Shown here one piece after another: positions 15,001 to 21,000 of a DNA stretch of 64,000 nt (position 1 is the first letter of the stretch; every line of letters starts with the position of its first letter). Location of the stretch: the NCBI GenBank assembly GCA_963754875.1, contig CAVWHO010000014.1:96001-160000 (forward strand), read 5' to 3'. Source of the stretch: Nitrospirota bacterium (lineage in GTDB: Bacteria; Nitrospirota; UBA9217). Position numbers: made by a program.

Positions 15001-18000
15001 CACGGACGTCGAGGCCGCACCGATTCTCTGCGAAACCGTCAGGATGACCCCCGGCGTCCTGACCTTCAGCCGTGAGGCGCGCCAGTTTCAGGCAAGGGTC
15101 GGTTTGATGAAGAGGTCCTTTCCCGAGGAAACCTGGCCGGACCTTTCTGACGAAGAGCTGTTTCAACGTCCCGAGGAGTGGTTAGTGTCCTGGCTTGCAG
15201 GAATTCGCAGCGCACAGGGTTTGAGCGGGCTGAACGTCCTCCCGGCGCTCCGGGCCCGTCTTTCCGGGAAACAGCAGCGGCTCTTGGATGAGCGTGCACC
15301 TTTATCCATTACTGTTCCGAGCGGTTCCAACGTAGCGCTCGATTATACTTCAGGCGATCAGCCGGTACTTGCCGTCAAATTGCAGGAAATGTTTGGTCTT
15401 GCTGATACGCCCGCGATTGTCAACGGCCGGGTAAAAATAGTATTGCACCTGCTCTCGCCTGCCCGCAGACCGGTCCAGATCACCCAGGATTTGAAAGGAT
15501 TCTGGAACACGTCCTATCAAGAGGTTAAAAAAGATTTAAAGGGACGGTATCCGAAACATCCTTGGCCGGACGATCCCTGGAATGCCGTACCCACCCGCCG
15601 CACGAAGCCACGCGCTCGTTGAACGGAAAATTGCGGAACGCGGACCGGGGAAACGCAACAGGCAACACGTAACAGGATTGCTAGCACGAAAAGAGCAGCG
15701 GCGATGGCCCGGCTCCTCTCCGAAGCAAGTCTGTTCACTATTGCGTGATATAGGTGTTTCGCGCCAGACTCGCAGTTTCAGTCAACGCTCTCTCCCCCCT
15801 GTTTACATAGTGCATTGCCGCGTCGTGCCGGTCGGCAAGTTTCCAAGCATGTTTGTAAAGGTGCCGGGGCTGCTTGACGATCACCCGGAACTTCCCCGCT
15901 TCATAGTCAATGGGCATGAACAGACCTGCTTCCTTCGCAAGAAGGTCCGCCTGAACAATCGCCCACTCACTACCCGTGGAAAATCCAATGCTCTGTCCGA
16001 TCGGGAAGCCGGCCGCAAAACCTGCCAGAAGCAATGCGGCAACTATTGTGATACGCTTTATGGTTTTTACGATAATATTCATGTTTCCTCCTCACCTTCG
16101 GCCGTTCTGAAAAAAAATCAAGAGAACGTCTCGTAAGCAACCGAAGGACTTTCAATAGCACGCTGAATTTACTCTCGTTACACGATCTTACAGCAAGAGT
16201 GCTGCCAGAATTAAAGGGTTGAAAAAAAGGAGTTAAACTGTCCGAATTGGTTTGAAGCTGAAGAGGAGTTCAATCTGAACAGGCCATTTTGAACTGCGCG
16301 GTTATTCTGAATTGCAACAGTTCAAACCTCCTCTGCGTCCTTCTTTTGCTCCAACTACACAAACTGAGTAAAAAAGTCGGAACGTAGTACATGACCATCC
16401 GTAGTACCGTCTTAGTTTGATTAAACGATAGGATTTTTCTAACTGACTCATGCACTGGGAGTGCCGTAGATAGAAAGAGGCGAGCGATTCGGCAGCGAAA
16501 GGAAAATTTAAAATAAGGTGCGGCTGAGATGCCGCACCTTGGAAGGGAAAATGATAACAATCCCATTCTAATCAAATTGAGAGAACATTCTCTGCAGCAT
16601 CAAAGCTTTATCGAGATCGTCATGCTCCAGTGCGCCGATCTTGACCAATATTTCGCCGAGCAGCTCCTTGGTGTATTTCTGGTGTTCAAGAGCCAAATCA
16701 AGGTCCTGAGGAATAATAACATCGTCGGCGAGTAGAAGAGCACCGAGTGGAACCTTTTCCTTGCTGTTTTTTACCACCATTGCTGCCAGGTCCATCATAC
16801 TAGCCCCCTTTTGTCATCCTTGCTATAAGTAGAATTTTGTAAAAATATCAGACAATTTTTTATTGATATAAACACATTATACTGTATTTTTTTTATTTGT
16901 CAAGTAAATTTAGTAAAAACTATAATTAATTGTTATAAAGAGTGAATGCTTATATGCCATTGATAAATTGTATCTTTTACTGGTATCATGTAAGACTGTA
17001 TCGTAATATATTTTAAAAAGCCCGCCAAGGATTACCTGTTCTCTCGGGAAACGTCATGTTGAAGCCCTGAACCGCCAATCGTGCTTGTTTCTCTTTTTTC
17101 CTGAGAGCTGTAAATCCTGTACCGAAGTTGGAAGCATGTTGCGGCCGATCTGGCACGTCGTATTGGTAACTCAGCCGCTTCGTTTCTTGCATAACAATAA
17201 TTAATTTATTTTTTTTCGTTAATTCCTGTTATTGTTGCGGGCCTTTGCAATTAGTCTTATAAAAACAATTACCAAGATATCGCAAATCATGAATTCTATC
17301 TCCCCCAAAACTCTTGCCTTTTTCAAATTAGTGTAGTACGTTATGATTACGAAAGGGCTATTGAGAGCTCTTTTGCTCCTCTGGTCTGTCACTGCCTTAT
17401 TTTTTTGGCTTCAATTACGCAGGCAATTCCCTATGCATGACATAATAAATATTTGCCGGGCACCCGCTCTTTCCTGAACGTGTGCTCTCCTATGCGAGTC
17501 GGCACTTTGCGATAATTCGAGACCCACCACCGAGAGGCACACGTTAGCGTCGTCTGCAGAATTTCAATGGAAGAGGCACTATGTGGCGCGCTGTAAATAA
17601 TCTCCCCATCTCGATAAAACTGCTTCTGACATCATTTGTCTTCATTTTTATTGTCGTCTGCCTGGCAGTGGCCGCTTTCTCCGGACTTACCCGCCAAAAG
17701 GAAATAACCGAAGAACTCTATTCCATTCAATACCGGGACCTGCAACGCAGCGCAGGGATAACGGGGCTGATTGCGAAAACTCATGCGGACATCTCGCGCG
17801 TGCTACGCAGCTACGGGAAGACAGCACAGGCGGACAGAGCGAACGTGCTGGACAAGCATGAGACCGCGCTGCAGTCCGTCATTCAATCACTGCAGGAAGC
17901 GGCTGACTCCGGTCGCCTGAGTGCAGAGTCACAGAAGACGTACCGTAACGTTATCCCCGAAATACAACAATACCTGCAGTTGATCGAGCGCGTTCGTGAC

Positions 18001-21000
18001 GCCGGGAAAGCCGATGCGGTTTTTGTCCGGCAGGTCCCGGCCATGGCTGATGAGCGTTTTGAGGCGATCATGGGCCTGTTGCAATCGCTCAATGATGCGG
18101 GTGACAGGGCCGGCGCAAAAACGTATGAACGATCCCTGGTTGCTTATCGATCAAGGCTTACAACGCTCGGCGTACTGCTTGCCGCAGCCGTTTGCCTCAT
18201 CGTCATCAATTTATTCATCGTACGGAGATCGATAATCACGCCGATCAAATCAATCGAGCAGGCGGCCAGGAAAGTGTCGCAGGGCGACCTGGCGTTCGAC
18301 GTGACGGCAGAAAGCGGGGACGAGATCGGTCGGGCCGGGAAGCTCTTGAAGGAATCTTTTACCGCCATGGAGGGGGTGCTCCTGCGGATCAAGGAGCTGT
18401 CGGACAGAATACGCTCGGTCGTCGTCGAGGTTGAAAAGACGACGGAAAAAGTTCTTGCCGGGTCACAAACGGAAGCGGAAGCAACAAGCTCCATATCGAG
18501 CGCTGTCGCGGAACTGAACTCCACCGTCGACGAGATTGCCGGCAACACGGAAGGCCTCGTGTCCGCATCGGAATCCGTTTCCTCTTCGATCGATCAGATG
18601 GCTGCCAGTATCAAGAGGATCAACGCCAGCATCCAGGACCTGGACGGGCTGGCATCGTCGACGACCGCCTCGATCGAACATCTCTCGAATGCCATCCGCA
18701 CCGTGGCCCGCAATTCCGAAGATCTGGAGGGCGCGTCGGAGGAGACCAGCGCGGCAATCGTCCAGATCGCGGCAACGGTGCGAAAGGTCGAGACCCATGC
18801 CAAAGAGTCGGCAGACCTTTCGGAACAGGTGACCACCGAGGCGGCCACGATCGGGCTCGATGCGATCCTGAAGACGATCGAGGGCATGAAGGAGATAGCC
18901 CTGTCGGTCAACGATTCCGCTGCGGCCATCCAAGCTCTGGGAAAGAGATCGCAAGAAATAGAGATGATCGTCGGCGTCATCGAATCGGTCAACGAGGAAA
19001 CGAACCTGCTGTCCCTGAACGCGTCAATCCTTGCGGCGCAGGCAGGCGAGCACGGCAAAGGGTTCGCAGTCGTGGCCAAAAAGATCAAAGACCTCTCGGA
19101 CAAGACGGAGCGTTCGACGCGGGAGATCGCATCACTCATCCAAACGGTCCAGCAGGAAATGAACGATGCGGGAAAACTGGTAAAGCAGGGCATCCCAGTC
19201 GTTGAAGAAGGCACGCGGCTCGCGCAGGCCGGGGAAGATGCGCTCAGGAGGGTCCTGGATAGCTCGAAGCGGGCCTCGGAGATGACCCTCTCCATACGCA
19301 GGGCCACCGAAGAGCAGGTAAAATCAACGGTCCTTGTAGAAGAAGCCGCCCGGAGCGTGAAGAAAAAGGTCGGCGATATCGCCAAGGCCACGGCCGACCA
19401 ATCGCGCGAGGTCGCCCTCATCGCTCAGGCAGCAGAAAGTATGAAATCACTCGCAGACCAGGTGAGCAAAGCAACGGGAGAGCAGGCAACGAGCAGCGGG
19501 CAGATTGCGCAAAACACCCAGCTTGTTTTCGAAAGAAGCCACCAGATTTCACGGTCCCTCAGCGAACACCGGAACGGGTCGCGAAGTATTCAAAAAAGCA
19601 TTGAGGCCGTCCAGAATGTTCCCCTCGCAAACCAGGACCTTGCCTTCAGGATCAGCAAAACGCTCTGGAACCTTCAGAAAGACGTGGAACTTCTCGGGGC
19701 AGAAATGGAGCGGTTCTCGTTGGACGATACGCGGGGCTTCTCGCTCCGTTTCGGAGTCGTTCCTCTCAAAGAACCTTCGGAGATGTTCAGAAAATTCAAA
19801 CCGCTCTCGGACCACCTGGCCGCAGAACTTGGCAGACGGGTTGATCTGAAAGTCGCGATCGACATGGAAAGCGCCGTCAAGGACCTGGGCGACAACGTAA
19901 CGCAAATCTGCGCCATGGGCCCGGCAAACTACGTTGAAGCGCACAGGAAATACGGTGTCGTCGTCATCGCGAAAGCACTCCGGAGGGGGAAACCATTTCA
20001 CCGCGTGGCCATCGTGGTGCGGAAAAATTCTCCTATTCAGTCCGTAACGGACTTGCGGGGAAAACGCTTTGCCTTCGGCAACATCGGATCAGCAACCGGC
20101 CATGTTATTCCGCTCGGGATGCTGAAGAACGCCGGCATGACGACCGCCGACCTCGGCCATTGCGAATTCATCGGGCATCATGACCGGCAGATAAAAGCCG
20201 TGCTCGACGGGGACTTCGATGCCGCCGGACTCATCGATGAAGCAGCGCAGAAGCACCTGTCCGATGGCTTGCGGGTACTCACGCTTTCCATTGAGATACC
20301 GGAGTTCAATATATGCTGCAATCCTTCGGTTGACGGCGAAACGCGGGACCATCTCAGGACAATCCTGACGTCCCTTACTGCGGCGAACGAAAAAGACGTG
20401 CAGATCCTTCAGGCGCTCGGGAAAGACTGTACGGGTTTCCTTCCCGCTTCTGAAAAGGATTATACCGAATTCAGAGACGAAATCGATAGTGTCGCGAACC
20501 TCGTTGCGGAAGAGGTCCAAAACCGGCCCGTTCAGCCGGGGCGGCGCTGATTCTGCGACAACTTTACCGGACAGGCAGTCCACAGTCGTTCTGACCGGCG
20601 CATGTGGGAAAGAAAACATAAATCAGCGATAAAATAGTTTTTGGCAGTGTTCTCCGGACGACGAATGATGAACCCCGCGACTTGCAATCCCCCGGCTCCT
20701 GCCGAGGGGGCTCCACTATAAAAAGGAGAGGCCATGAGCGAAGACCAGAAGAAACAGTCAGACGAATGGATTGTTTACGAGAAGACCGAGAAAGGCGTCG
20801 AGGAGATCCAGACAAGAAAAAACAACCTGCCGCAGAAGTTTCGCACGCTTCTCATAGTTGTCGACGGGAAGAAAACACGAGGAAACATTCTCAACCAGTT
20901 CTCGACCCTGGAAGGGGCGGTCGCGGTGCTGGATGAACTGGAGCAAAAAGGTTTCATAATGAAAAAAGCCGACGTTCTCGCCCCCGGCGTATTCACGGCA

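Follow-up and report, generated by a model that had tools for sequence, protein, structure and literature searches.

P0001, a chemoreceptor gene in the 64,000-nucleotide stretch of Nitrospirota DNA analysed here (the window), encodes a membrane-bound methyl-accepting chemotaxis protein (MCP) that continues, past its signalling hairpin, into a complete PhnD/PtxB-type binding-protein domain (Phosphonate-bd, PF12974). The evidence supports a domain that is cytoplasmic, in cis, folded and equipped with a conserved pocket, which makes a role as ligand sensor plausible. From sequence comparison we propose, with a probability of roughly 0.45, that P0001 is a dual-input chemoreceptor whose tail would close on an intracellular protonated inorganic oxyanion and shift the kinase balance of the receptor, with output to the CheA of a HEAT-repeat operon.

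Domain layout and topology

The gene and its neighbourhood contain the following features (window positions, strand).

17581..20550, +, chemoreceptor gene P0001, single 989-codon open reading frame; orphan, outside any che operon
17620..17676, +, first transmembrane helix (TM1), residues 14-32; peak hydropathy window
17686..18150, +, periplasmic four-helix-bundle sensor, about residues 36-190; weak 4HB_MCP_1 match, helices in model
18166..18222, +, second transmembrane helix (TM2), residues 196-214; hydropathy
18220..18342, +, HAMP domain, residues 214-254; PF00672, E 2.2e-10
18376..19722, +, signalling hairpin of 32+32 heptads, residues 266-714, tip at Glu490; heptad layout, MCPsignal, continuous helices in model
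19711..19740, +, linker of about 10 residues (711-720) from hairpin end to binding domain; model, and orthologues without the domain stop near here
19741..20475, +, cytoplasmic PhnD/PtxB-type binding-protein domain, residues 721-965; PF12974, PtxB alignment, AlphaFold model, Foldseek, VIA-align
19864..19920, +, Met762 (PtxB Tyr49/AioX Tyr88) to Gly780 (AioX Cys106 position); alignments
20089..20103, +, oxyanion loop S837-A-T-G-H841, STS changed to SAT in the derived subfamily; alignments
20302..20307, +, Glu908-Phe909, carboxylate equivalent to Pm_PhnD Asp205 (transitive alignment) and aromatic cap (PtxB Tyr)
16568..16798, -, divergent 76-aa gene, syntenic neighbour; linked to the receptor by synteny only
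20734..21231, +, 165-aa hypothetical gene, downstream neighbour kept in three congeners
21677..22459, +, receiver-PilZ protein, neighbour kept in three congeners

Pfam and hydropathy agree with the survey's finding of a 989-residue MCP in one frame, with two transmembrane helices, HAMP and a signalling domain. MCPsignal (PF00015) covers residues 421-594 (E 2.8e-34; 118.9 bits against a cut-off of 34.6) and includes the hairpin tip; the periplasmic sensor matches 4HB_MCP_1 at 8-182 below cut-off (E 9e-4). We take the F10 chemosensory class or the '64H' receptor class to be candidate labels for this 64-heptad receptor. P0001 has E/Q pairs at 387-388, 578-579 and 634-635, and 0 matches to a strict methylation consensus. 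The tail is likewise the complete domain originally described: PF12974 matches residues 724-961 over model positions 1-242 of 242 (E 1.2e-58, above cut-off), and its bilobed fold is that of a type II periplasmic binding protein. The 76-aa gene has no Pfam match and holds two copies of an MshEN-like motif.

Kyte-Doolittle hydropathy (19-residue windows) exceeds 1.6 only in windows starting at residues 5-21 and 190-204, with a maximum of 1.08 beyond residue 230; between tip and C-terminus of the fused homologs it peaks at 1.47 (87 of 96, those with the tip located by motif). Because the 64-heptad hairpin runs back to the membrane, the 10-residue linker places the binding domain beside HAMP, in the cytoplasm.

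Distribution and origin of the fusion

MCPsignal and PF12974 occur together in 96 of 97 matches to P0001 residues 690-975 (543-1731 aa, query included), so the architecture is a gene fusion and not an assembly artefact. In long forms whose tip motif was found, 226-234 residues separate tip and domain, and three congeners carry a syntenic orthologue of P0001. The fusion is present in 77 of 301 Nitrospirota genomes across 16 families, host (G000) included and three counted by domain score alone (open frames of 426-488 aa), in agreement with the 16 of 60 other genomes reported by the survey. The second host copy it described (C22:2-2419) is indeed there, interrupted by the contig end. In public sources, tens of fused genes carry the wrong label 'phosphonate ABC transporter binding protein'.

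Most relatives are located in a HEAT-repeat chemosensory operon (DUF4388-CheY-CheA-ExeA-CheW-MCPs-CheW-HEAT-CheR-CheB-GAF-CheY), where the PF12974 domain is sometimes cleanly absent; 72 of the 77 fused genomes have the HEAT marker. The host's copy of this operon is divided between contigs C22 and C6, whose receptors are the closest MCP matches to P0001 within the genome, and the host has five CheA dimerisation-domain matches. The four stand-alone PF12974 genes that the survey noted in the host are there, each directly upstream of a sensor kinase. The best-scoring model for the molybdoenzyme on contig C4 is TtrA (E 1e-154, below cut-off); ArrA scores far lower (E 1e-37).

The periplasmic sensor region of P0001-type receptors is variable (conservation 0.43), being Mcp40H-20, NIT, Cache or nothing among homologs; transmembrane helices are adjacent in 5 of 88 long fused forms, and five of eight short forms have none. 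Retention of the PF12974 domain despite loss of the outside sensor counts as support for ligand sensing by the tail. A single fused clade was rejected (p-AU 0.012); the fusion arose at least twice. The window copy, an orphan, belongs to a derived subfamily (56 sequences, 49-100% identity) whose pocket has been rebuilt.

Fold and pocket of the binding domain

The AlphaFold model of the domain (pLDDT 95.5) has the PtxB/ArrX fold by Foldseek and VIA-align, with Z 27.5 to ArrX and TM 0.77-0.85 (Z about 26) to PtxB, marine PhnD and HtxB. PtxB (5o2j; E 5.8e-23), HtxB and ArrX are the closest solved proteins in sequence; among the structural neighbours are proteins bound to phosphate, ATP and G1P (7s6g, 5ub7, 9lf9). 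With PtxB, marine PhnD and HtxB the domain shares Ser837, His867 and the aromatic cap position as well as the fold, and it has the Pm_PhnD-type carboxylate preceding the cap; unlike them, it comes without signal peptide or transporter. Relative to PtxB, Tyr49 is replaced by Met762, Tyr94 by His807, the Asp16 latch by Lys730, the capping Tyr203 by Phe909, and STS by SAT. Against the dual-input proposal, two more Tyr/Thr hydroxyls are missing from the window copy (Y49 to M, T125 to A), which has also gained Glu887.

Nine pocket columns are conserved at 0.96 against 0.73 elsewhere in the 56 derived domains, a value inflated because these homologs were gathered with P0001's own region as query, and at 0.86 against 0.65 in 79 ancestral domains. 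Random column sets equalled this in 24 (derived) and 239 (ancestral) of 100000 draws, in which kin are not independent. In the derived subfamily M (55/56), G, H, S, T and F (56/56 each) and E887 (55/56) are fixed; ancestral forms retain STS-H (S 79/79, T 68/79, S 70/79, H 75/79). A carboxylate at position 908 (Asp/Glu) accompanies absence of Tyr807 in fused domains (150 of 156, versus 3 of 27 with Tyr807) and in stand-alone proteins (47 of 101 versus 9 of 80). The same Tyr/carboxylate swap distinguishes Te_PtxB from Pm_PhnD, where the carboxylate implies a protonated ligand (PMC5700983). A conserved pocket that follows this known swap suggests that the tail probably binds a small protonated oxyanion, and, compared with the operon copy, the derived subfamily has probably changed in affinity or in ligand.

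Candidate ligands

The sensor reading of the survey's finding stands in so far as the tail is cytoplasmic, in cis, folded and plausibly ligand-binding; its choice of phosphite or arsenite does not, and we regard either as highly improbable. PtxB, HtxB and ArrX are the best solved relatives by sequence, an aromatic residue still occupies the P-H...pi cap position, and host periplasmic PF12974 domains with a Cys at the AioX position do exist (C4 N-terminal domain, C20). However, AioX, ArxX and ArrX need Cys106, Tyr88 and Tyr131, each altered in P0001: the Cys106 position is Gly780 (ArrX alignment), none of 183 fused domains has Cys there, and Tyr88, Tyr131, Ser161, Ser163 and His192 map through ArrX and PtxB to M762, H807, S837, T839 and H867. 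Those proteins resemble the P0001 domain in fold and in serving signalling, not transport, but they are periplasmic partners of sensor kinases, acting in trans from XSR clusters, whereas P0001 is a cytoplasmic fusion at an orphan locus. For phosphite, the PtxB combinations of capping Tyr with latch Asp, and of STS-H with two Tyr ligands, are both replaced (M762, H807, SAT, K730, F909). The capping position is Phe in 171 and Tyr in 3 of 183 fused domains, and this Tyr-to-Phe change lowers the phosphite affinity of Te_PtxB about 1000-fold (PMC5700983). The 90%-complete host genome has no PhnE/PtxC permease, PhnJ or AioA above cut-off, in a search that left PtxD aside. A C-P lyase-linked PhnD was rejected on its TIGR03431 score (104.7 bits against a cut-off of 261), with no PhnE above cut-off and no PhnJ.

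As ligand we tentatively favour (bi)sulfite or another sulfur oxyanion akin to it, a guess from sequence patterns. TtrS-type kinases use PhnD-like domains to sense tetrathionate and thiosulfate (PMC5408782); like P0001 they join PF12974 in cis to a signalling protein, but their domain is periplasmic and N-terminal on a histidine kinase, and P0001 matches the TtrS model weakly (E 0.002). In phosphite dehydrogenase, sulfite competes with phosphite (PMC10127272). The host carries dsrA, as do 71 of the 77 fused genomes, an association confounded by kinship. Among HEAT-operon genomes from families other than P0001's, 38 of 42 with dsrA and 1 of 11 without it have the fusion, and in two dsrA-negative genomes (G003, G285) the operon receptor is present without the domain. 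Inside the family the link fails (28 of 53 dsrA-positive versus 5 of 6 dsrA-negative). Three dsrA-positive genomes (G131, G173, G200) have the operon without the domain, and four dsrA-positive families (f11, f16, f18, f27) show neither HEAT marker nor long fused form. In Acidiferrobacterales all three fusion carriers are dsrA-positive, against 72 of 101 genomes overall. No conserved sulfur gene neighbourhood was found around the orphan copies.

Inorganic phosphate or a phosphorylated metabolite, by which the receptor would read cytoplasmic phosphorus or energy status, is a rather unlikely ligand. The ancestral STS-H is a phosphoryl-binding motif (PMC5700983), the phosphate-, ATP- and G1P-bound neighbours fit, and a pocket of lowered affinity would be appropriate for a ligand present at millimolar levels in the cytoplasm; but the aromatic cap leaves little space for a fourth oxygen or ester, Te_PtxB with a Phe cap lost phosphate binding (Kd > 60 mM; PMC5700983), and the central Thr is missing from the window copy. 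It is improbable that the derived pocket is ligand-free, its fold merely kept on a duplicated, relocated receptor. The orphan position, M762, H807, A838 and K730 in place of ligand and latch residues, and 0-1 consensus methylation motifs in 10 of 14 subclade versus 9 of 74 ancestral receptors would agree with it, yet the replacements are fixed across the 56 derived sequences, which, with conservation inflated by query choice, points to selection rather than decay.

Alternatively, though we consider this unlikely, the tail may bind no small molecule and serve in docking or oligomerisation, dimerising across the receptor dimer or tethering CheR, CheB or the HEAT protein as E. coli pentapeptides do. 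Positions specific to 64-heptad forms lie beyond the classical pocket (K798-A-L-R801, L729, V758, T774), the cap Phe may prevent closure, and HEAT immediately precedes CheR in the operon. Against it, operons that keep HEAT, CheR and CheB have an orthologous receptor without the domain, conservation is highest in the pocket columns, whose covariation matches that of ligand-bound structures, and soluble and TM-hairpin forms have no recognisable sensor other than PF12974. An exported domain or separate periplasmic protein, through wrong topology or gene model, is extremely improbable: the assignment is based on hydropathy and homology, and the operons of G067 and G011 contain signal-peptide-bearing PF12974 genes, but P0001 is one frame, 96 sequences carry the fusion, spacing is constant, hydrophobic segments are absent past the tip, and soluble members exist.

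Discussion

Under the dual-input proposal, the PF12974 domain would close on a small protonated inorganic oxyanion produced inside the cell, and the hinge motion would pull the last helix of the hairpin, shifting the receptor dimer between kinase-on and kinase-off. The tail would then act like an adaptation signal, comparable to c-di-GMP at the PilZ tail of Azospirillum brasilense Tlp1. Output would pass to the CheA of the HEAT-repeat operon, judging from length class and similarity only, and probably not to the flagellar system. Tlp1 likewise combines a periplasmic sensor with a cytoplasmic C-terminal ligand domain and adaptation-like tuning in cis, but uses PilZ and serves swimming, whereas P0001 has a periplasmic-binding-protein fold on a 64-heptad receptor tied to the HEAT-repeat operon. 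Chemoreceptors such as TlpD and McpA end in CZB, a zinc-binding domain with a fold unlike that of PF12974. Among families whose sensor domain follows the signalling domain, CZB has the most members (PMC7390727).

The architecture is not new, contrary to what the survey had claimed. Phosphonate-bd C-terminal to MCPsignal, the same order as in P0001, is listed by Russell et al. 2013 (PMC3604760, Fig. 8 legend), who already proposed tuning from inside by C-terminal domains, and by Ortega & Krell 2020 (PMC7390727, Supp. Fig. 2). Those entries are bare listings without taxa, operon, pocket analysis or experiment, and a literature search found no functional study of a PF12974-tailed chemoreceptor. 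Several solute-binding-protein families are catalogued as chemoreceptor tails; solute-binding proteins are otherwise regarded as extracytoplasmic (PMC8050422).

More speculatively, these receptors may be intracellular sulfite gauges, in which a phosphite-type periplasmic binding protein, recruited more than once to chemoreceptor tails in Dsr-using bacteria, would read the toxic intermediate at the centre of dissimilatory sulfur metabolism for the HEAT-repeat system. The window subfamily would be a duplicate re-tuned to a second pocket chemistry (M/GPAN/H/SAT/EE, with an added invariant Cys950), possibly for other sulfur species.

The family suits testing, with a soluble 250-residue domain, a confident model, a short ligand list, natural pairs with and without the domain at the same operon position, and three pocket variants. 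Should the ligand prove to be sulfite, the domain would offer a genetically encodable sulfite sensor. If ligand sensing holds, a Venus-flytrap domain would act from inside on the receptor coiled coil, and the common Nitrospirota chemosensory operon would have its first input.

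Domain organization and topology of the receptor

The chemoreceptor P0001 carries the following features, given in window coordinates for the gene and in residues for its domains.

17581-20550, + strand: chemoreceptor P0001, a single 989-codon open reading frame
Residues 8-182, + strand: 4HB_MCP_1 (Pfam, below cut-off)
Residues 214-254, + strand: HAMP (Pfam)
Residues 421-594, + strand: MCPsignal (Pfam)
Residues 724-961, + strand: complete Phosphonate-bd domain, PF12974 (Pfam, E 1.2e-58)

Pfam and hydropathy agree with the survey's finding of a methyl-accepting chemotaxis protein (MCP) with two membrane helices, HAMP, a signalling domain and a full C-terminal PF12974 domain; hydrophobic windows were observed only around residues 14-32 and 196-214, and no hydropathy value exceeded 1.08 beyond residue 230. 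The heptad layout places the hairpin tip at Glu490 with 32 heptads in each arm, and these equal arms bring the binding domain beside HAMP, within the cytoplasm. In the AlphaFold model an unbroken helix runs up to residue 710, followed by a 10-residue linker and the binding domain; the full-length monomer, with a pTM of 0.43, is uninformative on how the domain packs against the coiled coil. The isolated domain was modeled with a pLDDT of 95.5, and its structural matches were PtxB, ArrX, HtxB and XAC2383. Domain order, fold, conservation, operon and optional loss were established, and the topology by hydropathy and homology; we consider an error in the topology extremely improbable.

Size and spread of the fused family

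The architecture had been proposed as new; it is already catalogued. The Fig. 8 legend of Russell 2013 (PMC3604760) names Phosphonate_bd among C-terminal chemoreceptor domains, and Supp. Fig. 2 of Ortega & Krell 2020 (PMC7390727) has Pf12974 as one of 17 C-terminal domain types, in a chemoreceptor subfamily which that paper terms poorly characterised; the table passages of PMC8050422 mention Phosphonate-bd for AioX only. We found no functional study of an MCP-PF12974 fusion in a search whose coverage left out most subscription journals and bioRxiv supplements, and P0001 is thus a member of a catalogued architecture for which we found no functional test in the literature. Within the same coverage, nothing in print was found on the link to an operon, on the three states of the pocket, on fusion having occurred repeatedly or on the case against phosphite and arsenite, all described below.

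Using residues 690-975 as query (proteins of 543-1731 aa), MCPsignal and PF12974 occurred together in 96 of 97 homologs, query counted. Long forms (64 heptads) make up 88 of these 96, with 226-234 residues from tip to domain where the tip motif was found; the other 8 are 40-heptad short forms, with 139-140 residues. Five short forms lack transmembrane segments, and five long forms have adjacent transmembrane segments and no outside sensor. Elsewhere this sensor differs (4HB, Mcp40H-20-like, NIT, Cache), and in 54 derived proteins, a set chosen with the tail as query, its conservation is 0.43, whereas the tail reaches 0.74 and the signalling core 0.73. We also observed P0213, a fusion of a third length class with 193 residues from tip to domain.

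A profile of 30 domains (long form, score >250 bits) detected the long form in 77 of 301 Nitrospirota genomes, across 16 families (3 of the 77, reading frames of 426-488 aa, were included on score), and 3 further genomes have the short form alone. Short forms were also found in 3/101 Acidiferrobacterales genomes and one record named Bacillota, and a Rokubacteria MAG carries one long form.

Genomic context

Most long forms share the gene order DUF4388-CheY-CheA-ExeA-type ATPase-CheW-MCP(+domain)-MCP-CheW-HEAT-CheR-CheB-GAF-CheY (32 loci compared), a chemosensory operon probably of class F10 with 64H-class receptors; no passage on this class label was found in PMC2577667, PMC3945109 or PMC8396549. 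Its HEAT-repeat marker was present in 72/77 fused genomes and in 112/301 Nitrospirota genomes. The host operon is divided between contigs C22 and C6 and contains the second fused copy, confirmed on C22; its HEAT gene (L042:6922-8541, C6) has stop codons within the match and may be frameshifted or mis-assembled. Contig C15 of the host holds the flagellin-type matches and 3/5 CheA matches. In five genomes (G003, G285, G131, G173, G200) the orthologous receptor stops shortly past the hairpin while the adjoining operon genes are kept, indicating that the domain is an optional module.

Two HEAT operons contain separate PF12974 genes (L132:7487-8353 in genome G067; L137:953 onward in G011); these might work in trans or be a remnant of the event that produced the fusion. 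We rejected them as a split cytoplasmic form, since they bear signal peptides and score only 90 and 113 bits to the fused profile.

P0001 itself is an orphan copy. Its neighbours are hrpB and the genes for a 76-aa, a 165-aa and a receiver-PilZ protein, an arrangement that is syntenic in three congeners. The surrounding observations are as follows.

9462-12966, + strand: HEAT-repeat protein and HD-GYP-like (HD_5) gene, upstream of the receptor
16568-16798, - strand: 76-aa gene with two tandem motif copies, both without the leading Arg; syntenic in three congeners
20734-21231, + strand: hypothetical protein of 165 aa, encoded once in the genome; three congeners keep it downstream of the receptor
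21677-22459, + strand: receiver-PilZ gene, downstream of the receptor
22674-24722, - strand: secreted 682-aa protein with six Big_2 Ig-like matches

The receptor is thereby flanked by several c-di-GMP-related genes (HD_5, receiver-PilZ). The motif of the 76-aa gene resembles the MshEN c-di-GMP-binding motif; the gene had no Pfam match, and the Atlas clusters closest to it are either unnamed or DUF2949. Atlas neighbours of the 165-aa protein are unnamed clusters at 0.95-0.96. No Rfam match was found in window 15000-23000, and the upstream region gave 11 promoter-like sites (3.7 expected), most of them in an AT-rich gap.

Origin of the fusion

A single origin of all fused domains, apparent in a first tree (one clade, 0.98, n = 144), was lost with wider sampling. 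IQ-TREE analysis of 65 of 265 rows rejected one clade for long, short and P0213 forms together (p-AU 0.012) and grouped P0213 with a stand-alone protein; P0213 is therefore an independent fusion, and fusion arose at least twice. Near the long fused domains branches a clade of proteobacterial stand-alone PF12974 proteins (L075, L076, L081, L082, L086, L088, L091, L092, L097, L107, L112, L115, L122). The alignment has a gap at the STS oxyanion loop of these proteins, and their hosts include Sulfuriferula, Thiobacillus and Acidiferrobacterales.

Pocket residues and candidate ligands

Pocket residues were mapped by HMMER alignments to Ps_PtxB and ArrX, hence from sequence alignments and not model coordinates, with residue roles from the relevant passages of Bisson 2017 (PMC5700983) and the AioX structure paper (PMC5908839). 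The correspondences are D16 to K730, Y49 to M762, AioX C106 to G780, Y94 to H807, S124-T125-S126 to S837-A838-T839, the His to H867 and the cap Y203 to F909. Three pocket states were distinguished.

Pocket states of the fused domains
Ancestral long forms (n = 79): F, H/Q, STS, H, E908-F909
Short forms (n = 9): Y, Y, STG, H, Q-F
Derived clade with P0001 (n = 56, support 1.00): M, H, SAT, H, E887, E908-F909, invariant Cys950

A vestigial domain in the window copy is quite improbable. Nine pocket columns exceed the rest in conservation (random sets reach the same in 24 and 239 of 100000), and an acid at 908 accompanies the absence of Tyr807 in 150/156 fused domains versus 3/27 with Tyr, a trend shared by stand-alone proteins (47/101 versus 9/80), with significance overstated in all these counts because the sequences are related and non-independent. 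Conservation and covariation together indicate that the pocket is not decaying. The same Tyr/carboxylate swap separates Te_PtxB from Pm_PhnD, whose carboxylate implies a protonated anion in the account of PMC5700983, and a protonated anion would likewise be implied for the fused domains.

Arsenite and phosphite, the ligands initially favored, are probably wrong as judged from these residues, and we rate them very unlikely. The AioX-position Cys is found in 0/183 fused domains versus 14/187 stand-alone ones, and the cap is Phe in 171/183; the corresponding Te_PtxB Y208F exchange is reported in PMC5700983 to raise the phosphite Kd from 0.17 to 295 uM and to abolish phosphate binding. Neither PhnE/PtxC, PhnJ nor AioA was found over cut-off in the host genome (90% complete). 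That genome does have the AioX-position Cys in two periplasmic PF12974 domains, and its four stand-alone PF12974 genes linked to kinases were verified. Alongside a tandem two-domain PF12974 protein with this Cys in its N-terminal domain, one locus (L152:3979-14327, C4) encodes a kinase and a sigma-54 regulator and has an operon for a TtrA-like molybdoenzyme.

Our main reading is a small inorganic oxyanion as ligand (probability roughly 0.45). Phosphate or a phospho-metabolite is unlikely, and it is likewise unlikely that the domain is instead a docking module. Sulfite or a related sulfur oxyanion is our favored, still tentative guess. The host and 71/77 carriers of the fusion have dsrA, and among HEAT-operon genomes outside the host's own family the fusion occurs in 38/42 dsrA+ versus 1/11 dsrA- genomes; two dsrA- genomes (G003, G285) are without the domain, though their families are otherwise fused. 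PhnD-like domains serve tetrathionate and thiosulfate sensing according to PMC5408782, and PMC10127272 describes sulfite as a competitor of phosphite for phosphite dehydrogenase. Against a sulfur link, the own family has the fusion in 28/53 dsrA+ versus 5/6 dsrA- genomes, four dsrA+ families are without any long form, the Acidiferrobacterales comparison did not discriminate, and no conserved sulfur gene neighbourhood was found around orphan copies. At one locus only, a DsrC/TusE-family gene (L151:6486-6818, G200) lies directly upstream of a derived-type receptor, on the same strand.

Proposed signalling from the cytoplasmic tail

Consensus methylation motifs number 0-1 in 10/14 members of the window subclade versus 9/74 ancestral forms, which would fit a heavier reliance on the tail. 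The binding domain may close on a small protonated oxyanion, and closure would pull the last hairpin helix, biasing CheA. A model for such tail input would be c-di-GMP at the PilZ tail of Tlp1, described in PMC3604760, where Russell 2013 proposes adaptation by intracellular cues through PilZ or other domains. That the fused receptors act as sulfite gauges is a doubtful extension of our reading; the receptor family itself is real, conserved and experimentally tractable.
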